A stretch of 36,081 bases of DNA. It comes from a virus (lineage: Duplodnaviria; Caudoviricetes). This document shows positions 1 through 36,081 of the stretch, piece by piece. The stretch is from positions 1 to 36,081 of IMG/VR virus record IMGVR_UViG_3300016667_000113; one strand, 5' to 3'. The notes under the pieces were generated by a model. The model had not been told where the DNA came from, made no database searches, and saw only the letters and a list, made by a program, of their open reading frames with translations. The position numbers and the translations under genes are program-made. Within the stretch, counting starts at the first letter, position 1. The number at the start of each line of letters is the position of its first letter.

Positions 1-173
1 CCTCCTAAGCACACAAAAAAGTGAAATAAAGAAATAATTAATGAGGGACAGATAAAATGCTAAAAAGACAAATAAATTCAACCACTTAGAAATATTTTCA
101 TGGGAGATGTGCACAAGGGCCAATATAGTGTCGTGTGAATGCTAAAAAGTTGCTCACAAGGGTCTAAAAAGTA

Positions 174-2497: not shown

Positions 2498-4548
2498 TGG
2501 CAGAATTTACAGAGTTTGAAGAGCCTTCTGAGTCCGACAAGGAACTCGTAGAATGGATTGTTAGCCATACGGAGCGTTGGCGCAACTATCGAAACACCAA
2601 CTTCCTGGCAAACTGGGAGGAATACGAGCGTATTTTCAAAGGTGAATGGGCTGCTGAAGACAAAACCCGTGACAGCGAGCGTAGCCGCATTGTGGCTCCT
2701 GCAACGCAGCAGGCCGTGGAAACCCGCCACGCTGAAATTATGGAAGCCATTTTCGGTCAAGGCGAGTTTTTTGACATTGAAGACGACATCCGTGACGTAA
2801 ACGGCACGCCTTTGGACATTGAGGCCATCAAGCGTCAACTGTCAGAAGACTTCAAGAAAGACAAAATCAAGAAAGCCGTCGACCAGATTGTGTTGATGTC
2901 CGAGATTTATGGCACTGGCGTTGGTGAGATTGTTGTCAAGCGTGAAAAGGAATATGTTCCTGCGACACAGCCGATTCCTGGCGTTGTAGGTCAGGCAGCC
3001 ATTGGCGTGATGGAGCAAGACCGCATTGCTGTCAAACTTCAGCCTATCAACCCTAAAAACTTCCTATGGGATCCTAACGGCACTTCTGTGGATGAGTGCA
3101 TGGGCGTTGCCATTGAGAAGCCTGTTAGCTTCCATAAGGTGGTGGAAGGCATTGAAAAAGGCATCTACCGCAAGGTGGAAATTAAGCAAGAAAGCTCTCA
3201 GGACGATCTGGAAGCCTCTTTTAGCGATGTCCATTATTCCGACGATCAGGTGATTTTGCTCACCTATTATGGCTTGGTTCCTAGGGAATATCTGGAGCAG
3301 CTTGAAGAGGGCGATAATGAGGTGGTGGACATCTTTCCTGAAGACACGGAGATGGACGAATATGCTGACCTCGTGGAAGCCATCATTGTCATTGCCAACG
3401 GTGAAACCCTGCTGAAAGCTGAAGCCAATCCTTACATGATGAAGGATAGGCCCATTATGACCTTCCAGGCCGACACTGTTCCCAACCGCTTGGCAGGCCG
3501 TGGGACGGTTGAGAAGGCTTATAACATGCAGAAAGCCATTGATGCACAGCTCCGTAGCTACATTGATGGTTTGGGGCTTACAACGGCTCCTATGATGGCT
3601 ATGGACGCTACGCGCATGCCTCGTGGCTCTAAGTTTGAAGTGAAACCTGGTAAGGCTATTCTGGTTAATGGCAATCCCAATGAAATTCTTACTCCGTTCA
3701 AGTTTGGCAATCCTGACGGCAGTAACGCACAAGCTGCTCAGAATTTTGAGCGCATGCTGCTACAAGCTACTGGCACTCTCGATAGCAATGGCTTGGTGTC
3801 TTCTGTGTCTCGTGACGCTGGTGGGGCAGGTATGTCGGCTGCTATGGCGTCTATCATCAAGAAATATCGTCGCACTCTCACGAATTTCCAAGAAGACTTC
3901 CTGATGCCTTTTATTAAGAAGGCTGCTTTCCGTTACATGCAGTTTGATCCAGAGCGTTATCCGTCTGTGGATTTCAACTTTGTTCCTACGGCTACGTTGG
4001 GAATTATGGCTCGGGAATACGAACAGCAGCAACTCATTGGTTTGCTTCAGACGCTTGGCCCTGACACCCCTGTTTTGCCTCTCATCCTCAAAGGAATTGT
4101 GCATAACAGCGGCTTGTCCAACAAGGCAGAGCTGGAGCAGATGCTTACGCAGATGTCTCAGCCCAATCCTGAGCAACAAGCTCTTCAACAACAGCAGGCA
4201 ATGCTGCAAATGCAGGCTGTGCAGGCTCAAATTGCTGTCAATGAGACACAAGCGAAGCAGAATGAAGCTGAAGCCACTAAAACCATCATTGAAGCCCAGT
4301 TGAAGCCTAAGGAAATTGAGGCTAAATTGGCGTCTATGTTGACACAAAATCTGCCAAATAATGCAGATCAGGCTTCACAAGAGTTTGACAAACGTGTTAA
4401 AATTGCTGAATTGATGCTGAAAGAAGCAGACATTCGTAATAGATCAAAGATTGTGGAGCTACAAATGCACAAAGCAAAGGGCGATGTTGCAGATGTGGAA
4501 AAAGATTTCTTGAAACAACTGTCTGGAAAGTTAAACAATGGACGTTAA
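2497..4548 (+). CDS. portal protein
   Basis: ~683 aa after terL; acidic, Q-rich coiled-coil C-terminal region typical of P22-like/podoviral portals; start moved to ATG 2497 (TAATG overlap). Confidence 0.85.
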   Translation: MAEFTEFEEPSESDKELVEWIVSHTERWRNYRNTNFLANWEEYERIFKGEWAAEDKTRDSERSRIVAPATQQAVETRHAEIMEAIFGQGEFFDIEDDIRDVNGTPLDIEAIKRQLSEDFKKDKIKKAVDQIVLMSEIYGTGVGEIVVKREKEYVPATQPIPGVVGQAAIGVMEQDRIAVKLQPINPKNFLWDPNGTSVDECMGVAIEKPVSFHKVVEGIEKGIYRKVEIKQESSQDDLEASFSDVHYSDDQVILLTYYGLVPREYLEQLEEGDNEVVDIFPEDTEMDEYADLVEAIIVIANGETLLKAEANPYMMKDRPIMTFQADTVPNRLAGRGTVEKAYNMQKAIDAQLRSYIDGLGLTTAPMMAMDATRMPRGSKFEVKPGKAILVNGNPNEILTPFKFGNPDGSNAQAAQNFERMLLQATGTLDSNGLVSSVSRDAGGAGMSAAMASIIKKYRRTLTNFQEDFLMPFIKKAAFRYMQFDPERYPSVDFNFVPTATLGIMAREYEQQQLIGLLQTLGPDTPVLPLILKGIVHNSGLSNKAELEQMLTQMSQPNPEQQALQQQQAMLQMQAVQAQIAVNETQAKQNEAEATKTIIEAQLKPKEIEAKLASMLTQNLPNNADQASQEFDKRVKIAELMLKEADIRNRSKIVELQMHKAKGDVADVEKDFLKQLSGKLNNGR

Positions 4549-6430
4549 AAAACTAATGGCTGAAGGTAGTTTGGATAATTTGTCCGAAGACCTTTTCAAG
4601 AGCGTTTCTAGCTATTCGGAAGAAGTGAAGGCTTTCCAGCGTCAAAAAGCTGCTGAATATGCCGATCAAGTGGTGGCTGCTCTAAAGAAAATTGAGCAAG
4701 ACATCAAAGATCGCTACGACCGAGTGGGCCTTACTCTAGAAAAGCGTGTTCTCAACATCAAAGACGGCAAAGACGGTATCAATGGTCGTGATGGTAGGGA
4801 CGGCAAAGACGGTAAACCGGGCGCTGCTGGCCTTCCTGGGCGTGACGGCAAGGATGGAAAGAATGGCCGTGATGGTGTAGACGGAAAAGATGGCGTTTCT
4901 GTTATTAATGCCTTCCTTGACTTTGACAATAGCCTTGTCATTGAGCTATCTAACGGCAAACAGGTGAACGCTGGCGCTATTCTCGGTGCAGATTTTGCTG
5001 AGAAAGTGAAAATTATTGCCAACGGTGGCGGTACAAGCCAAGGCGTTATTGACACTTTGGCTTCGTTGCAGGCTCAAATTAGTGCTATTTCCTCTTTGGG
5101 AGCTGTTAGCTATCAGGGAACATGGAATGCTTCGACGAACACTCCTACAATTACGGCAAGTGTTGGCACTAAGGGCTATTATTACGTTGTTAGTGTTGCA
5201 GGCACTACGTCCATTAACGGAGAGAGTAAATGGGGCGTGGGTGACTGGATTGTTTTCAACGGCTCTACGTGGCAGAAAGTGGACGGAGGCAGCACTGGAA
5301 ATCTGACAACGCTGGATGTCAGTGGAGCAGCTACGATTGGCACTGATTTGACGCTTTCTGGAGGCACTGCCAACGGCGTGGCCTATCTGAATGGCTCCAA
5401 AGTTATCACTACGGGGAGTGCGCTGACTTACAACGGAAACACTCTGGGTCTCTATTCGGCTACAGCAGGCTTGAGCCTGCAAACCTCAGTCAACACAAAT
5501 CAAGCGATCATTACGCTGGCTGATGCTGATGGGCGCACGGCAGTATTCCGAAGCCCAAACAGCGGGTCGCCAAACTTGGCGCAGATTGGTACGACGACCA
5601 ACCACGATTTGGCTTTCCTGTACGGCAACACCGAACAAATGCGCCTGACCTCCACAGGGTTGGGCATTGGGACGAGTTCTCCTACGCAACCTGTAAGCAT
5701 CTATAAAGCATCTGGTGGAGTTTGGTTTGGAGCTAAATCAGGAAGCAATTCGGAGCAGTTATTCGGATCAGATTCCTCTGGTAACGCTGCTATTTACGCA
5801 CAAGGCGCAAACGTTATTGCGTTGTATACCAGTGGCTCCGAACGCGCCCGCATCGACTCCAGCGGTAACTTGCTGGTGGGTTGTACAACAGGGTATATAG
5901 CTGCAATGAACTCATTTGGTAGTTCGCGTGATGGTATTCATGTTGGTGTTTCAGCAGGTGCTGGTACAGTATATTCATTTATTGCGGGCTGGTATTCAAG
6001 CACTTCAACATCTCGTGGAACATTATCTTTTAACGTCACTTCAAACGGTAACGTCACAAATACAAACAACAGTTATGGCGCTATTTCTGACATTAAATTG
6101 AAAGAAAACATAACAGACGCAACACCTAAACTAGCGCAACTGTGTCAAGTTCGTGTGGTGAATTACAACTTCAAAGAAGGTCAGACGCAAAAGCAAATTG
6201 GTGTGATTGCTCAAGAATTGGAACAAGTGTTTCCGTCGATGGTTGACGAGACAGCTGATTTTGAGATGGTGACAACAACCGATGAAGACGGTAACGAGAT
6301 AACTGAACGGAGGGCAACAGGCACAACCACAAAGTCTGTGAAATACAGCGTGTTTGTTCCTATGCTCATCAAAGCTATTCAAGAACTCAAAGCCGAGGTG
6401 GACAGCCTCAAAGCACAACTTAACAAGTAA
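4538..6430 (+). CDS. fibre protein with collagen-like repeat and C-terminal intramolecular chaperone (peptidase S74-like)
   Basis: 15 G-X-Y triplets (4766-4900), YQGTWNASTNTP motif, beta-repeats MRLTSTGLGIGT / RARIDSSGNLLVG, SDIKLKENI...IGVIAQELE...LIKAIQEL chaperone signature. Confidence 0.85.
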   Translation: MDVKKLMAEGSLDNLSEDLFKSVSSYSEEVKAFQRQKAAEYADQVVAALKKIEQDIKDRYDRVGLTLEKRVLNIKDGKDGINGRDGRDGKDGKPGAAGLPGRDGKDGKNGRDGVDGKDGVSVINAFLDFDNSLVIELSNGKQVNAGAILGADFAEKVKIIANGGGTSQGVIDTLASLQAQISAISSLGAVSYQGTWNASTNTPTITASVGTKGYYYVVSVAGTTSINGESKWGVGDWIVFNGSTWQKVDGGSTGNLTTLDVSGAATIGTDLTLSGGTANGVAYLNGSKVITTGSALTYNGNTLGLYSATAGLSLQTSVNTNQAIITLADADGRTAVFRSPNSGSPNLAQIGTTTNHDLAFLYGNTEQMRLTSTGLGIGTSSPTQPVSIYKASGGVWFGAKSGSNSEQLFGSDSSGNAAIYAQGANVIALYTSGSERARIDSSGNLLVGCTTGYIAAMNSFGSSRDGIHVGVSAGAGTVYSFIAGWYSSTSTSRGTLSFNVTSNGNVTNTNNSYGAISDIKLKENITDATPKLAQLCQVRVVNYNFKEGQTQKQIGVIAQELEQVFPSMVDETADFEMVTTTDEDGNEITERRATGTTTKSVKYSVFVPMLIKAIQELKAEVDSLKAQLNK

Positions 6431-8194: not shown

Positions 8195-9157
8195 ATGGCT
8201 ACCTCCTATCTTAACAGTGCTAATAACACTACCGTAACCACCGCAGCAACGTTCATTCCTGAAATTTGGAGTGATGAGATTGTTGCTGCTTATAAGAAAA
8301 ACCTGGTTGCTGCTAACCTCGTCAAGCGCATGTCTTTCAAAGGCAAGCGTGGCGACACCGTGCACATCCCTTCTCCGAGCCGTGGCACTGCCAACGCTAA
8401 AACCGCTACCAACGTCGTCACCCTGCAAGTGGCTACTGAGAGCGAAGTTGCTGTGTCCATCAACAAGCACTATGAATATAGCCGCTTGATCGAAGACATC
8501 GTGGAAGTGCAAGCTCTGTCGTCGCTGCGTGGTTTCTACACCGAAGACGCTGGCTATGCTCTGGCTCGCCAAGTTGACACCGACCTGATCCGTTTGGGCC
8601 GCACGTTCAACAGCGGTTCGGCTGGTGCTCGTTACAACGGCGCTTACATCGGTGGCGACGGCACGACCGCTTTCGACTACTCCGCTTCGTCGGGTGCTGG
8701 TAACGCTTCGGCTCTGACCGATGCTGCTATCCGTCGCACGATTCAGCGTCTGGACGACAACGATGTGCCTATGGACGGCCGTTTCTTCATCATCCCCCCG
8801 AGCAGCCGTAACACGCTGATGGGCTTGGCTCGCTACACCGAGCAGGCTTTCGTGGGTGAGGCTGGTAGCAACAACACCATCCGTAACGGCGAAATCGGCA
8901 ACCTGTACGGCATCCCCGTGTTCACCACCACCAACGCTGACTACCTGAACAGTGCTGCTGATGGCTCTGGCACGAACATCGGTCGTGTGGCTCTGATGGG
9001 TCACAAGGATTCGATGGTGCTGGTTGAGCAGCAGGGCATCCGTTCGCAAACCCAGTACAAGCAAGAATACCTGGGTACGCTGTTCACCTCTGACACCATC
9101 TACGGTGTTAGCGAACTGCGTGACTACGGTGCAGTTGCACTGGCTGTTCCGGCTTAA
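8195..9157 (+). CDS. major capsid protein
   Basis: 320 aa, FIPEIWS, GDTVHIP, GEIGNLYGIPV, DTIYG motifs of HK97-fold podoviral capsids; strongly C-ending codon bias; followed by terminator. Confidence 0.92.
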   Translation: MATSYLNSANNTTVTTAATFIPEIWSDEIVAAYKKNLVAANLVKRMSFKGKRGDTVHIPSPSRGTANAKTATNVVTLQVATESEVAVSINKHYEYSRLIEDIVEVQALSSLRGFYTEDAGYALARQVDTDLIRLGRTFNSGSAGARYNGAYIGGDGTTAFDYSASSGAGNASALTDAAIRRTIQRLDDNDVPMDGRFFIIPPSSRNTLMGLARYTEQAFVGEAGSNNTIRNGEIGNLYGIPVFTTTNADYLNSAADGSGTNIGRVALMGHKDSMVLVEQQGIRSQTQYKQEYLGTLFTSDTIYGVSELRDYGAVALAVPA

Positions 9158-29241: not shown

Positions 29242-29270
29242 AATGTAACAGATGTCTCACAATTTGTCAA
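29242..29270 (-). promoter_or_regulatory. sigma70 promoter of the endonuclease cassette
   Basis: TTGACA (29270-29265), 17 bp, TACATT (29247-29242). Confidence 0.75.
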
Positions 29271-32609: not shown

Positions 32610-32757
32610 CGTCATCTTCCTGTTCGTTGTCGTCGTCTTGCTCTTCCTCTGGCTCGTCCCGCCCAAAAATAGCCTCCCAGCGTTTGTCGTATTCGTCCTG
32701 GGTGACGCTAAATGGGCGAGGCTTGCTGCCTTTACCGCCATGCCATGAATTATTCAT
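32587..32757 (-). CDS. small protein with GGKGSKPRP motif and acidic tail
   Basis: MNNSWHGGKGSKPRPFSVTQDEYDKRWEAIFG; AGGAG SD, ATGA overlap. Confidence 0.7.
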   Translation of the reverse strand: MNNSWHGGKGSKPRPFSVTQDEYDKRWEAIFGRDEPEEEQDDDNEQEDDDADTDEE

Positions 32758-32984
32758 GTGTTTTTCTCCTTGAGTTTGGCTTCGATGGCACGTACAAACG
32801 GGAGTCCGACTTCTTCCCAATCGCTAGGGTAGACATAGCAGACCCCTGGCTTTGGAAAGTTTACAGCTTTTGCTTCCTCATCCGTCAGACCCACCCACTC
32901 ACGGCGCATCATTTCCACGCCGGAGCCATCCCGGTAATCGTGGCACGCGCAGCCGCGCTCGGCACATGCTGGGTTTGCAATCAT
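32754..32984 (-). CDS. hypothetical accessory protein (WVGLT family)
   Basis: WVGLTDEE...RAIEAKLKEKNT; GC-rich. Confidence 0.7.
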   Translation of the reverse strand: MIANPACAERGCACHDYRDGSGVEMMRREWVGLTDEEAKAVNFPKPGVCYVYPSDWEEVGLPFVRAIEAKLKEKNT

Positions 32985-33040
32985 TTCAAAGCCCCTTTAA
33001 TCAAAGACAAACAAAAGACAAACAATCCAAATATTGTCAT
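32981..33040 (-). CDS. 19-aa hydrophobic peptide
   Basis: MTIFGLFVFCLSLIKGALK; GGAG SD; ATGA overlaps at both ends. Confidence 0.5.
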   Translation of the reverse strand: MTIFGLFVFCLSLIKGALK

Positions 33041-33240
33041 TGTTTGCTCCAGTATTCAAGATATTTTTTCTCAATGTCATCAAGGATAGATAAACTTTTA
33101 GTATTAAAAATCCATTGGGCAATACCATCGACCAATCCCCAGTAATGGCTCTCTTCCAACATCGCCTCAATGTCATCATTCGACACACCATTAAGAGACA
33201 CAAAGTCTTCTTCAATTAGCAGGTTTTTCATTTTACCCAT
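33037..33240 (-). CDS. hypothetical protein
   Basis: MGKMKNLLIEED...; GGAG SD at 33251-33248. Confidence 0.65.
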   Translation of the reverse strand: MGKMKNLLIEEDFVSLNGVSNDDIEAMLEESHYWGLVDGIAQWIFNTKSLSILDDIEKKYLEYWSKQ

Positions 33241-33256
33241 GACATTTCTCCAATTT

Positions 33257-33272
33257 TGGCACACTTTTTGCA
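33257..33272 (+). promoter_or_regulatory. sigma54 -24/-12 element, antisense to early genes
   Basis: TGGCAC-ACTTT-TTGCA in an intergenic gap. Confidence 0.55.
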
Positions 33273-33342
33273 ATACTTTAAAGAATCTTATAGGTATACT
33301 TTAACAGTTGTATTCTTTACTTATAGGTACCTTTAACTGTTG
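33273..33342. repeat. AT-rich direct repeats (possible replication origin)
   Basis: CTTATAGGTA(ta/c)CTTTAACwGTTG at 33287-33310 and 33320-33342. Confidence 0.5.
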
Positions 33343-33584
33343 TCTTCTATGTCTCCTTCATAGTCTACATAGTTATTATAATGGCCCCCGTGAGCTTCTG
33401 GGAAATCTTCAAGGTCAAAATCAGACTCTTTTACTAGGTCTTTCCTGTCCCTGGTGGGCATGATGTCTTTCAATCCAGACTCAGAAAAACAGACATTGCA
33501 GATGTCCACAAAATCACCAGTGTTCGCATTCCTGCGTGTAGATTCAAAATCAGTCAATAGAGCATCACAAATTTTACAATGCAT
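33333..33584 (-). CDS. zinc-finger hypothetical protein
   Basis: CKIC...DICNVC; 83 aa. Confidence 0.7.
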   Translation of the reverse strand: MHCKICDALLTDFESTRRNANTGDFVDICNVCFSESGLKDIMPTRDRKDLVKESDFDLEDFPEAHGGHYNNYVDYEGDIEDNS

Positions 33585-33649
33585 GGCTACCCCTTACCTC
33601 ATGTTAAAAAATCGATTGTAGGCTGTTTTAGAGCGTTTTGGAAGCATTT

Positions 33650-33763
33650 TTAGAAGGGAGCCTCTTCAAGGGGAGGCATGGGAGGCTTGAAAACAGGCAC
33701 AGGCAAGCCATTCCAGACAGGGAAAGGCCATGTGCGTGAATCGTAAGGGCATGGGTTTGTCAT
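33650..33763 (-). CDS. 37-aa proline-rich protein (missing from ORF track)
   Basis: MTNPCPYDSRTWPFPVWNGLPVPVFKPPMPPLEEAPF; GAGG SD; ATGA overlap. Confidence 0.6.
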   Translation of the reverse strand: MTNPCPYDSRTWPFPVWNGLPVPVFKPPMPPLEEAPF

Positions 33764-33993
33764 GTTTTAACCTCAGGAAGTGTTTTAAGCCAATCATAAA
33801 TGTCTTTTACGGGCCCAATTTGCCAATATCTGCCTTCATCCACTGACAGAAGAGCTCCGTCTGCTGTGATACGCATTCGTTCGTTCTTTTCTATCGCTGG
33901 CCCACAATCCAACAAGGCCACAGAACTATCCACCAATGAGGGCTTTACAATCTTTCCCTTTTTAAGGGCTAATGCAATGGTTTCTTCAATCAT
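33760..33993 (-). CDS. early hypothetical protein
   Basis: 77 aa, GGAG SD, ATGA overlap. Confidence 0.65.
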   Translation of the reverse strand: MIEETIALALKKGKIVKPSLVDSSVALLDCGPAIEKNERMRITADGALLSVDEGRYWQIGPVKDIYDWLKTLPEVKT

Positions 33994-34220
33994 GGCTGCT
34001 CCATGTCGTGACAGTGTTTCTCATAAGCGGCCATGACATCGTCTAAGACACTCTCAGACAAAATATCCATAATGTCAACGCCATTGTGATAGACTGCCAC
34101 AATGGACACATTATCGGGCACAGTGTAATGTCCTAAAATGGGATGGTAGCAGTCTTTTTCTGTGTCTTCTATCTCTGCTTCCAGGTCAATAAACCCGTAA
34201 GATAGGTGAATGGTAGTCAT
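33990..34220 (-). CDS. early hypothetical protein
   Basis: 76 aa acidic, GAGG SD, ATGA overlap. Confidence 0.7.
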   Translation of the reverse strand: MTTIHLSYGFIDLEAEIEDTEKDCYHPILGHYTVPDNVSIVAVYHNGVDIMDILSESVLDDVMAAYEKHCHDMEQP

Positions 34221-34447
34221 TGGATGTATTCCTCATAAAGCGTAATAAGTGTCTCGAGACGTTCGAGCTTATACGACTCTATCAGTGTTGATGCATTCTC
34301 TGCCAGCACTGAATAGACGCTATCAATAAGCCCTTGTAGGCATTCTCTGGTGTGTTTTAGCTCTTGCAGGCATCGATATGCTTCGGGAGCCGTGGTGGAT
34401 GTCCACAATGCCTGCTCCATGTCGAACATTTGTTCACGATTTAGCAT
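34217..34447 (-). CDS. early hypothetical protein
   Basis: 76 aa, GGAG SD. Confidence 0.65.
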   Translation of the reverse strand: MLNREQMFDMEQALWTSTTAPEAYRCLQELKHTRECLQGLIDSVYSVLAENASTLIESYKLERLETLITLYEEYIQ

Positions 34448-34450
34448 GTA

Positions 34451-34795
34451 TCATTCTCCAATGTATTCCGCTACTTCGGGCGTATTTTCGTCGATGTATT
34501 CGCCTTGTGTGATGTTACTTGCCACCCATTCAGCAGCAAAGTAGACAACGCTTCCCTTGAACGTATCCACATCATCCATGTTATCAAGGACGTATTGAGG
34601 AAGCTCGCCCGTTTCGTCCTTGTATTCGGCCAGCAAAGCGTGCAAAGCTGCGCCGTGTTCGTCATACAGAGTCACCAAGTCGCGAGTCCAGATAAGCCCG
34701 TGGTGGCCCGTGTTGGCCCCGTGGTTTGCCATATCTGCCAATTCATTGTGGCTGTAGGTGCGTTGCATGTGGGCTGTGAATGTGTTTTCTTGCAT
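34451..34795 (-). CDS. early hypothetical protein
   Basis: 114 aa acidic, DMANHGANTG...YFAAEWVA; AGGAG SD. Confidence 0.7.
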   Translation of the reverse strand: MQENTFTAHMQRTYSHNELADMANHGANTGHHGLIWTRDLVTLYDEHGAALHALLAEYKDETGELPQYVLDNMDDVDTFKGSVVYFAAEWVASNITQGEYIDENTPEVAEYIGE

Positions 34796-34833
34796 GTTAG
34801 CTACTCCTGAGCAAGTATGCGGGCAAAATAGCC

Positions 34834-34861
34834 CCGTAAAGCCCCGTTTAGAGCTTTACAG
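34834..34861 (-). promoter_or_regulatory. intergenic RNA hairpin in early transcript (processing/antitermination site?)
   Basis: CUGUAAAGCUCU-AAAC-GGGGCUUUACGG, 12 bp with three G-U pairs that form only on the - strand RNA; no U tract. Confidence 0.55.
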
Positions 34862-34874
34862 TGCAAATCTACCA

Positions 34875-35108
34875 TTAAGGGTATGAGCGCACAATCAAGC
34901 TATTTTCTAGTTTTCCAATGTAGCAAGTCCCTACATTGGAGAAAATGCAACAATAAACCCGACGCCATTTGCCATTGTATCGAATCATTGTAGCCGTGGC
35001 GATTCTCTTGCCGTATCCCGTGGCCGTTTGCATCAAGCCTAAATGGTGTACCCGCATCGGTGCGTGTTTTGCTTCGCATTGTTGCCCATTAACATAGAAA
35101 AATTGCAT
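34875..35108 (-). CDS. early hypothetical protein
   Basis: MQFFYVNGQ...TATGYGKRIAT...WRRVYCCIFSNVGTCYI; AAGGGG SD. Confidence 0.7.
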   Translation of the reverse strand: MQFFYVNGQQCEAKHAPMRVHHLGLMQTATGYGKRIATATMIRYNGKWRRVYCCIFSNVGTCYIGKLENSLIVRSYP

Positions 35109-35121
35109 GATGGTTTCCCCT

Positions 35122-35214
35122 TTACATAACATCAAAGAATGACAAGACACAAGCCAGGATGACGGCCTGCGAGACAATGAAGAGAGACAGATTGACGATA
35201 GATTGTGTTTTCAT
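35122..35214 (-). CDS. 30-aa membrane peptide (missing from ORF track)
   Basis: MKTQSIVNLSLFIVSQAVILACVLSFFDVM; AAGGG SD. Confidence 0.55.
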   Translation of the reverse strand: MKTQSIVNLSLFIVSQAVILACVLSFFDVM

Positions 35215-35217
35215 GGA

Positions 35218-35346
35218 TTACCCTTTAAGCTGTTTTTCAATCCAAGACAATGCAAGCCACAGTTTAGCAAACTGATGTGGCGTGCCTGTCTCATCGGTGA
35301 CAATCCAGCCTGTCGCTGGCTTTGCTGATTTAATGGTGTATTGCAT
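35218..35346 (-). CDS. early hypothetical 42-aa protein
   Basis: MQYTIKSAKPATGW...; AAGGA SD. Confidence 0.6.
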   Translation of the reverse strand: MQYTIKSAKPATGWIVTDETGTPHQFAKLWLALSWIEKQLKG

Positions 35347-35420
35347 GGCTTGGTTTCCTTTGGTGGTGATGTTGCTGAGAGTGTAGCCCCTTGCGAGGGC
35401 TTGTGAATAGGGACAAACCC

Positions 35421-35549
35421 TTAGCGTGCTACAAAATTCTGTTCTTGTCCAATCATCTGGAAAAATTGTCCCCCGATGCGTGCAAAAACTTTTCCATTGC
35501 TGTATCGAATGGCATAGAAGCCGTTGAGTGTTCCATATTGGCAGTTCAT
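35421..35549 (-). CDS. first early gene, 42 aa (missing from ORF track)
   Basis: MNCQYGTLNGFYAIRYSNGKVFARIGGQFFQMIGQEQNFVAR; GGAG SD. Confidence 0.6.
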   Translation of the reverse strand: MNCQYGTLNGFYAIRYSNGKVFARIGGQFFQMIGQEQNFVAR

Positions 35550-35596
35550 GATGGATGCTCCAGTGTGTCACAGCGACTGTGCTGTGCCTATACCCT

Positions 35597-35612
35597 TGCA
35601 AGCACTGTGCCA
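35597..35612 (-). promoter_or_regulatory. sigma54 (RpoN) promoter at head of early operon
   Basis: - strand TGGCAC-AGTGC-TTGCA matches TGGCAC-N5-TTGCW; predicted +1 ~35586, 37 nt before first early ORF. Confidence 0.7.
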
Positions 35613-35710
35613 GCCCATATAAATTAATGCTTGAGTGTTACATTATAGACCATTTCGTGCCTTCAGTGTTACACTGCCTGGAAATGTAATACTTTTTTGT
35701 CTATTCCTAA

Positions 35711-35770
35711 GGCTCCATATTGGTGCATGAATGGCCTTGGTGCACTGCTTCGGTGCAAGACAATGCACCA
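35711..35770. promoter_or_regulatory. NtrC-type enhancer sites
   Basis: GGCTCCA-TAT-TGGTGCA (35711-35727), TGCACTG-CTT-CGGTGCA (35741-35757), extra half-sites TGGTGCA 35738 and TGCACCA 35764; consensus TGCACCA-N3-TGGTGCA. Confidence 0.6.
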
Positions 35771-35782
35771 GATTGATTAGCT

Positions 35783-35959
35783 TGTGGATAACTCAGTGAT
35801 TATGCACAAGTTATACATCTAGGCTGTGGATAACTTGGCAGATAGGTGGTTTCCCTTAGAACCTTAGTGGTGCTAAATAGGTGCTACTCCGTCCCTCATG
35901 TGTCCATCCTGTGGATAACTCATGTGACTTATACACAACAGTGAATATCCTGTGGATAA
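35783..35959. promoter_or_regulatory. cluster of six DnaA boxes
   Basis: TGTGGATAA at 35783, 35825, 35910, 35951; TTATGCACA at 35800; TTATACACA at 35929 (consensus TTATNCACA). Confidence 0.8.
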
Positions 35960-35971
35960 CTCTTGAGATAC

Positions 35972-36028
35972 TCAGTATGCTTATCATTAGAGACCTAATC
36001 ATCAGTATGCTGAACATTAGAGACCTAA
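35972..36028. repeat. 27-bp direct repeat, 30-bp period
   Basis: TCAGTATGCTtAtCATTAGAGACCTAA (35972-35998) vs TCAGTATGCTgAaCATTAGAGACCTAA (36002-36028). Confidence 0.9.
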
Positions 36029-36035
36029 GATGTAA

Positions 36036-36055
36036 GCTAGTGAGTGCTTACTAAC
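36036..36055. promoter_or_regulatory. SlmA-binding-site-like palindrome
   Basis: TA-GTGAGTGCTTAC-TA; core 10/12 to E. coli SBS GTGAGTACTCAC. Confidence 0.45.
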
Positions 36056-36081
36056 ATAGGGGGGGGGGGGGGGGGGGGGGG

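Follow-up and report, generated by a model that had tools for sequence, protein, structure and literature searches.

A predicted host NtrC-activated sigma-54 early promoter as one version of an exchangeable cassette in a clade of freshwater podovirus-like phages

The DNA analyzed here (the window) is a single IMG/VR record of 36,081 bp, taken at its full length. Terminase, portal, capsid, and tail genes lie on the plus strand, and the minus strand carries ribonucleotide reductase, thymidylate synthase, a T7-like DNA polymerase, a primase-helicase, and small early genes. The four small genes that head the early arm vary across the clade; the first ORF had no match among the first ORFs of relatives, and the fourth matches phrog_3436 (unknown function). 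Upstream of them is a leader that contains a −24/−12 box of the sigma-54 type, NtrC-type sites, and DnaA-type boxes (Table 1).

CheckV puts the completeness of the window at 46%. Related genomes, however, measure 35 to 40 kb, each end of the window matches one half of a junction motif that is conserved, and unitigs from run X1 extend 58 nt beyond position 1 and 10 nt beyond position 36059. We therefore take the window to be an essentially whole, podovirus-like genome, whose ends appear to join across no more than about 70 nt. A 29-nt tandem duplication of the junction motif just past position 1 (window positions 1 to 29), seen in runs X1 and X4, may account both for the break in the assembly and for the low completeness given by CheckV. 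The poly-G tract at 36060 to 36081 is probably a sequencing artefact; it prolongs a natural run of G that relatives also conserve. Positions 35546 to 36059 were identical in run X1, an agreement that is not independent because X1 is possibly the source sample. Runs with at least a quarter of the stretch were freshwater metagenomes from two studies, one possibly the source, and RNA-labelled runs contained less than 10% of its words.

A family search of the record gave no match to RNA polymerase or integrase families, the RNA_pol search having been made without a positive control. No DNA match to positions 33200 to 36059 was found in the cultured-phage collection, and the best cultured protein matches were 48% for the DNA polymerase (Pelagibacter phage HTVC103P), 29 to 35% for the capsid (cyanopodoviruses), and about 25% for the terminase. 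When the capsid (8195 to 9157) was searched, the best 120 of at least 8,000 scored candidates were all at least 76% identical, and none of these 120 named a host. The phage belongs to a large clade without an isolate in the collection searched. Assignment of a host through prophages or bins was rejected, as the 23 genome_contigs loci came from unrelated bins, 21 of them titled MAG or uncultured, and were probably misbinned; they served solely as entry points. The gene after the portal gene (4538 to 6430; L515 to L593) is highly variable, encoding collagen repeats and an S74 chaperone here and being absent or replaced in most relatives. In addition, two overlapping short frames at 32997 to 33273 on the minus strand take the place of one expected gene, which could be a frameshift or a decayed gene.

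Table 1. Positions of promoter elements, regulatory boxes, and first early genes in the window
Feature	Position	Strand	Remarks
−24/−12 (sigma-54-type) box	35597..35612	-	predicted start near 35586; box kept in relatives
Proximal NtrC-type box	35711..35727	.	center −133; 2 mismatches to TGCACCA-N3-TGGTGCA; 15.2 bits
Distal NtrC-type box	35741..35757	.	center −163; 3 mismatches; 17.3 bits, best site of the window
Third, weak NtrC-type site, one perfect half	35764..35780	.	4 mismatches, at −168
Second −24/−12 box	33257..33272	+	antisense to early genes
Strict DnaA-type boxes beside the enhancer	35783-35791, 35825-35833	-	both invariant in 12-leader alignment
Relaxed DnaA-type box	35800-35808	+	
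Zone A strict DnaA-type boxes	35910-35918, 35951-35959	-	
Zone A relaxed DnaA-type box	35929-35937	+	
Clade motif M2	35880..35898	-	parts leader into zone A (promoter independent) and zone B (promoter coupled)
27-nt direct repeat	35972-35998, 36002-36028	.	
GTAAGYACT box	36043..36051	-	common to many relatives
Perfect TATAAT, possible second (sigma-70) promoter	35642..35647	-	−35 only 4/6, 19-bp spacing
First early ORF, 42 aa	35421..35549	-	starts at 35549 behind GGAG; no family
Second to fourth small early ORFs (42, 30, and 77 aa)	34875..35346	-	
Terminator-like hairpin after fourth ORF	34834..34861	-	12-pair stem, weak T tail

A preliminary description of the sequence had reported the −24/−12 element (TGGCAC-AGTGC-TTGCA) and two NtrC-like 17-mers 30 bp apart, and both were found as described and at the coordinates given. 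The element contains the sigma-54 pattern GG-N10-GC within TGGCAC-N5-TTGC, is intergenic, points towards a gene, and is conserved in orthologous leaders. By a hand-made score the −24/−12 pattern occurs twice in the window where 0.12 is expected, and only 1 of 100 shuffles reached two. The second occurrence, overlooked earlier, lies upstream of the primase gene; such an antisense box was present in 5 of 90 non-redundant stretches, the window included, compared to 0 to 1 in shuffles. In the window and in L006, L007, L009, and L010, the antisense box is followed by AT-rich DNA and lies between the early genes and the primase.

Counted by themselves, the NtrC-like sites do not exceed chance, as two were found and 2.5 are expected at three mismatches in 36 kb. 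Their position sets the pair apart, since 36 kb holds no other match and both lie within 150 bp of the box. The two are also the best of the genome, the next best reaching 9.3 bits, under a matrix derived from 41 sites that precede glnA in bacteria; this score is partly circular because the matrix was seeded with the same consensus. The two sites are in helical phase, lie within 80 to 200 bp upstream, and begin 145 and 115 nt before the TGG of the −24/−12 box, with the weak third site at 168. The third site was not in the preliminary description and falls outside the ten best matrix scores; its GTGCA is invariant when the window is aligned with 11 leaders picked for the same layout. In that alignment, the TGGCA and TGCA columns of the −24/−12 box are invariant, and invariant columns concentrate in two DnaA boxes, the NtrC half-sites, and the −24/−12 box, with no more than 1-bp gaps between. 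The left half of the proximal NtrC box is perfect in the window and its right half is degenerate; the 11 aligned relatives have a perfect right half.

Relatives were gathered by means of the junction motif, an anchor outside the promoter, to avoid selecting on the promoter. Two scans with the motif, one viral and one of metagenome contigs, gave at least 120 loci each. In the viral set, 700 nt of downstream sequence was available for 64 of the at least 120 loci, 62 of them non-redundant; in the pooled set, 131 of at least 240 were long enough and 107 were non-redundant. Among the matches listed, a forward box lay within 700 nt in 41 of the 62 viral relatives versus 0 to 2 in 20 shuffles, and in 1/59 and 2/59 of the next windows and 0/53 of the upstream windows. 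Pooled, the box was found in 64 of the 107 non-redundant relatives among the matches listed, a share that may overstate that of the wider clade because the anchor motif was read from ten box-bearing loci. Eighty relatives found through the primase had 63 to 76% identity, and the layout was already evident in L031, L049, and L053.

Relatives keep both the GG-N10-GC box and the NtrC sites at close to the same spacing, −146/−116 from the TGG where the window has −145/−115; the loss of box and sites among relatives, which the preliminary description had named as refuting it, was thus not observed. Moreover, NtrC-type pairs are almost confined to leaders with a box: among the matches listed, two or more NtrC-matrix sites were found in 41 of 64 leaders with a box and in 1 of 43 without, and in zone B alone the numbers were 32 of 55 and 0 of 34. 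A de novo count of dyads recovered ACCA-N3-TGGT from 15 leaders among the matches listed, every one of which belongs to the NtrC class. Neighboring NtrC sites are mostly 20 to 23, 30 to 31, or 52 bp apart, which are multiples of the helical turn and are not independent counts, and at least three layouts occur (−169/−146/−116, −182/−151/−130, and −145/−124/−104). In 44 of 64 leaders among the matches listed, the first ribosome site and its ATG follow the box at a distance of 50 to 70 nt. In seven records (L044, L051, L058, L060, L350, L379, and L413), the two boxes of a divergent −24/−12 pair are 150 bp apart and share NtrC-type sites between them. Host-factor sites are conserved in the early promoters of the clade, the sequence pattern expected where the lytic program is deferred according to host state. 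We conclude that the element is real and conserved and that it probably functions as a promoter.

The preliminary description also held that the leader has no good sigma-70 pair, in contrast to four clear ones elsewhere. Exact TTGACA-type promoters in fact number six. Within the leader, the −35 element is indeed weak, but a perfect TATAAT 30 bp upstream of the −24/−12 box had been missed. A sigma-70 promoter is allowed since TAYAAT is enriched beside the box: it lies within 60 nt in 22 of 64 relatives versus 7.4 in shuffles, 12 times at −47 and 5 times at −35 (among the matches listed). In E. coli, the glnAp1/glnAp2 pair provides a model for such an arrangement. Here, TATAAT could give basal sigma-70 transcription, with a sigma-54 polymerase parked 30 to 50 bp downstream as a roadblock until NtrC clears it. 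Boxes without an evident enhancer would suit a roadblock: among the matches listed, a reversed box was found in 7 of the 43 leaders without a forward box, six of the seven without an NtrC site, which indicates that a box can persist without one, and the antisense box of the window is another candidate. Against this, the −35 element and spacing are poor, a sigma-70 match of at least 10/12 was present in just 2 of 64 box-bearing leaders and TAYAAT is missing from 42 of 64 (among the matches listed), and the arrangement would still require sigma-54 and NtrC. We consider a dual promoter of this kind unlikely, and sigma-54 sites may, from the reversed and antisense boxes, act as roadblocks or decoys in addition. 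A contribution of IHF was not indicated: between enhancer and box its consensus was exact in 0 of 64 leaders and within one mismatch in 14 of 64 versus 13.2 shuffled (among the matches listed), and the window matches only at two mismatches, which lends no support to a promoter of the IHF-assisted type (as in glnHp2 or nifH).

Other elements of the leader are shared by both promoter types. Strict DnaA-type boxes, so labelled by their consensus, number 5 in the window where 0.35 are expected, and the four at 35783 to 35959 had gone unnoticed. DnaA-type boxes occur in 72 of 107 relatives, that is, in 41 of 64 leaders with a −24/−12 box and 31 of 43 without (among the matches listed). In the window they accompany a T7-like polymerase and a primase-helicase that the phage itself encodes; they may serve as an origin, in growth-linked control, or in titration of host DnaA. 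Motif M2 was found in 65 of 80 loci and in 89 of 107 leaders among the matches listed. Contig ends cluster just after M2 and 235 to 390 nt beyond the junction motif, possibly through assembly breakage, and M2 may mark the edge of a terminal repeat because several contigs stop 20 to 40 nt after it. GTAAGYACT occurs in 28 of 64 leaders with the box and 22 of 43 without (among the matches listed). In zone A, Fur-, NrdR-, and parS-like boxes and two dyads accompany both promoter types, and Fur-like boxes were present in 14 of 55 leaders with the box and 11 of 34 without (among the matches listed). The zone A mosaic lies near the probable genome end, with Fur-like boxes in L146, L148, L159, L181, L187, and L188, NrdR-like boxes in L120, L182, and L192, and parS-like boxes in L141 and L166.

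The indifference of these boxes to promoter type raises the alternative that the leader is a decoy array, its copies soaking up DnaA, NtrC, sigma-54, Fur, NrdR, and ParB so as to block host replication and de-repress uptake or nucleotide genes, with any promoter role secondary. A decoy accounts better for zone A and the DnaA boxes than for the NtrC pair. It would require neither the strict coupling of zone B boxes to the −24/−12 box and their helical phase nor a box that faces the first ribosome site, and we regard it as quite unlikely to be the main function.

Zone B indicated that the enhancer is exchanged. Among the matches listed, the 23 box-bearing leaders without an NtrC pair comprised 14 with TGTC-N8-GACA, 4 with CGGCAA, and 5 with one NtrC site. 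Arrays of TGTC-N8-GACA in zone B were found in 13 leaders with the box versus 0 without, CGGCAA triplets (at −97/−76/−55, 21 bp apart) in 4 versus 0, and TCTTATATAAGA in 0 of 55 versus 30 of 34, all among the matches listed. In total, the latter sequence, an operator of the GntR type associated with the tricarboxylic acid (TCA) cycle, was present in 35 of 43 box-less leaders, and just 7 of the 43 had a sigma-70 match of at least 10/12 (among the matches listed). In the box-less leaders (L118 to L192), the TCA operator sits among DnaA boxes; a TGTAAG direct repeat closes several of these leaders. A quick terminase tree comprised 45 rows, namely the window plus 44 of the 62, the others having too little terminase. 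On this tree the NtrC label changed 11 times, at least 6 of them forced by well-supported branches. Moreover, near-identical terminases accompany different cassettes (L166/L177, L116/L122, L139/L191, and L159/L119), which indicates that the cassette moves relative to the terminase gene. The coupling of box and enhancer may come partly from transfer as one block, though at least three NtrC layouts exist. A comparison of tail fibre with enhancer covered 21 loci with more than 6 kb of late genes, 1 of them a TGTC member and 2 CGGCAA members, a set too sparse to match enhancer with receptor.

The other boxes were compared with bacterial genomes from the order to which G001 belongs (record L256, "uncultured beta proteobacterium"). 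TGTC-N8-GACA joined to a −24/−12 box was found in 43 of 301 genomes (including the unpublished G350, counted only there), versus 8 for a scrambled palindrome and 0 for a reversed one, and preceded nif/rnf genes at 14 of 29 loci and pilin-type genes at 5 of 29. This points to enhancers of the NifA or PilR type. The phage box profile is closer to that of the pilin loci, based on 6 boxes, than to that of the nif loci, based on 17, numbers too small to choose between PilR and NifA. GGCAA-N3-TTGCC joined to the box occurred in 17 genomes (reversed control, 0) and preceded flgB, flgH, flgI, or flgK at 14 of 20 loci, six of them confirmed with Pfam. TCTTATATAAGA was present in 82 of 151 genomes (control, 15), at 5 of 10 loci between mdh and a GntR gene, at 1 before isocitrate lyase, and at 2 before aconitase-like genes; its GntR regulator is presumably the one called SdhR. 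CGGCAA corresponds to a motif proposed for FlrC in 10.1101/2021.08.29.457346. The TGTC and CGGCAA motifs are informative only when joined to the box and at the level of the order: in 61 genomes of the family of G001, the strict TGTCGG palindrome occurred in 1, CGGCAA alone in 15, mostly in coding DNA with no strong −24/−12 box near, and an AT-rich palindrome about 30 nt before the box in 1. We conclude that the enhancer is a swappable module within one phage clade, which is new here.

The host is probably betaproteobacterial, an assignment that we infer, indirectly, mainly from the occurrence of TCTTATATAAGA in the order of G001, the motif being one that relatives carry and the window lacks, and a single order having been compared. 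In the family of G001, ntrC was present in 56 of 61 genomes and rpoN in 58 of 61. Leaders of glnA from 30 loci of that family and four more, one of which was too short, had a −24/−12 box in 31 of 33 cases at a looser threshold, and most had a TGCACC-N5-GGTGCA-type box. The phage NtrC sites resemble those before glnA in this group, as scored with the partly circular matrix. Genomes of the family encode several NtrC-like activators and three internal-virion-like ORFs of the phage (13884 to 18178) match no family, so the same promoter might answer to a host NtrC paralogue or to a phage protein, either virion delivered or unrecognized. We think this very unlikely, as the boxes match those before host glnA, no sigma-54 activator domain was matched in the record, and the window has no GAFTGA-like motif. 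That the arrangement is a chance or relic sequence taken from a host promoter is most improbable, for although about two NtrC-like matches are expected somewhere in 36 kb, conservation and coupling across 107 leaders (among the matches listed), with variable spacers and several layouts, largely refute it.

At the sequence level, the leader has every feature by which an NtrC-activated sigma-54 promoter is recognized. As in E. coli glnAp2 and betaproteobacterial glnA, a −24/−12 box is preceded at 100 to 170 bp by tandem TGCACC-N5-GGTGCA-type sites about three turns apart. In glnAp2, the sites are 32 bp apart and start 122 and 90 nt before the TGG; those of the phage lie about 23 to 25 bp further out and are flanked by DnaA-type boxes. 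Unlike glnA promoters, the element is phage borne, stands ahead of small genes of unknown function, and is exchanged for other boxes in relatives. In T7-type phages, constitutive sigma-70 early promoters at the entering genome end are followed by a phage polymerase. As in those phages, a promoter for host polymerase heads the early arm here and the DNA polymerase and primase-helicase are T7-like, but no phage RNA polymerase was matched. LUZ19 has equivalents of the T7-type host-polymerase promoters, according to PMC10914365.

The same paper describes a sigma-54-like promoter, P015, with a mapped start in Pseudomonas phage YuA, which is virulent and lacks an RNA polymerase; its main text names no activator and does not contain the words "enhancer" or "RpoN" (PMC10914365). 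YuA is unrelated and offers one promoter and no clade-wide swapping. Virulent phages that read host regulators are also on record in PMC9437464: phi29 with Spo0A/Spo0J, alphaproteobacterial phages with CtrA boxes, and LexA-controlled phages. There, as here, host-factor sites in phage promoters link the lytic program to host state, but those cases involve repression or a cell cycle link and one factor, whereas the present promoter is predicted to depend on an obligate ATP-driven activator, with several interchangeable factors. In main texts, with subscription journals thinly covered, we found no NtrC-driven or enhancer-swapping phage promoter, and within that coverage YuA's was the only sigma-54-like phage promoter found in print. 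Co-option of host regulators is known, and the swappable sensor is new.

The first early genes define how far such a promoter might reach. Between the first two ORFs (35375 to 35420, minus strand) are an AGGG-N4-CCCT dyad, related dyads of which recur in relatives, a GCAA-loop hairpin, and a 9/12 sigma-70-like site (35407). The first transcript may end at the hairpin that follows the fourth ORF, and the replication genes could be served by a 10/12 sigma-70-like site (33404) and by a TTGACA promoter in the DNA polymerase region (29270); Rfam gave nothing credible in 32700 to 36081. Because of the TATAAT, the sites at 35407 and 33404, the hairpin, and the promoter at 29270, nitrogen control may cover only the four small genes, unless genome entry too is driven by their transcription.

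We conclude, with a probability of about 0.7, that the window carries a host NtrC-activated sigma-54 early promoter that is one version of an exchangeable cassette in a freshwater podovirus clade. To open a promoter, a sigma-54 polymerase requires an ATPase bound at an enhancer; NtrC becomes phosphorylated and active when nitrogen is limiting. Since the spacing is conserved and NtrC pairs are nearly confined to leaders with the box, dependence on host sigma-54 and NtrC would follow from established biology. Host sigma-54 polymerase would dock at the −24/−12 box once that genome end enters, the early-arm end being placed first solely from gene order; phosphorylated NtrC would assemble on the two or three in-phase boxes and loop to the polymerase, and transcription would begin near the predicted start, so that output of the first genes should rise with nitrogen limitation. 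Sister lineages would take the same first step from an activator of the PilR/NifA type or the FlrC/FleR type, and others would use a box-less leader under a TCA cycle repressor.

The preliminary description had proposed a nitrogen-sensing switch, and its NtrC/sigma-54 layout is supported. The proposal was too narrow: nitrogen is one option among several, because the clade swaps the enhancer for boxes of other activators or the promoter for a box-less leader. In T7, transcription pulls the genome in, and a gate is possible if the first transcription here also drives genome entry. A strict nitrogen gate on the whole infection is conceivable but less probable than a boost of the first genes. Because relatives either keep the layout or carry boxes for other regulators, the phages likely tie first transcription to one chosen host signal. 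We offer only as a tentative extension, and a doubtful one, that the cassette is a plug-in sensor at the genome end that enters, such that infection starts only if its activator works (NtrC here; pilin- or flagellar-type activators or TCA state in relatives), that cassettes partition hosts by physiological state, and that the DnaA-, Fur-, NrdR-, and parS-like boxes of zone A titrate regulators.

The usual assumption is that virulent phages begin with constitutive promoters. If the reading proposed here is true, the obligate need for a host activator would tie lytic success to nutrient state by way of a readable DNA element, and the nitrogen status of a lake would be linked to the killing of what are probably betaproteobacteria. 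The clade offers a natural series of cassettes on near-identical backbones, which could be tested with 300-bp reporter fusions and without phage, and sequence would then predict the host state that each uncultured phage exploits.
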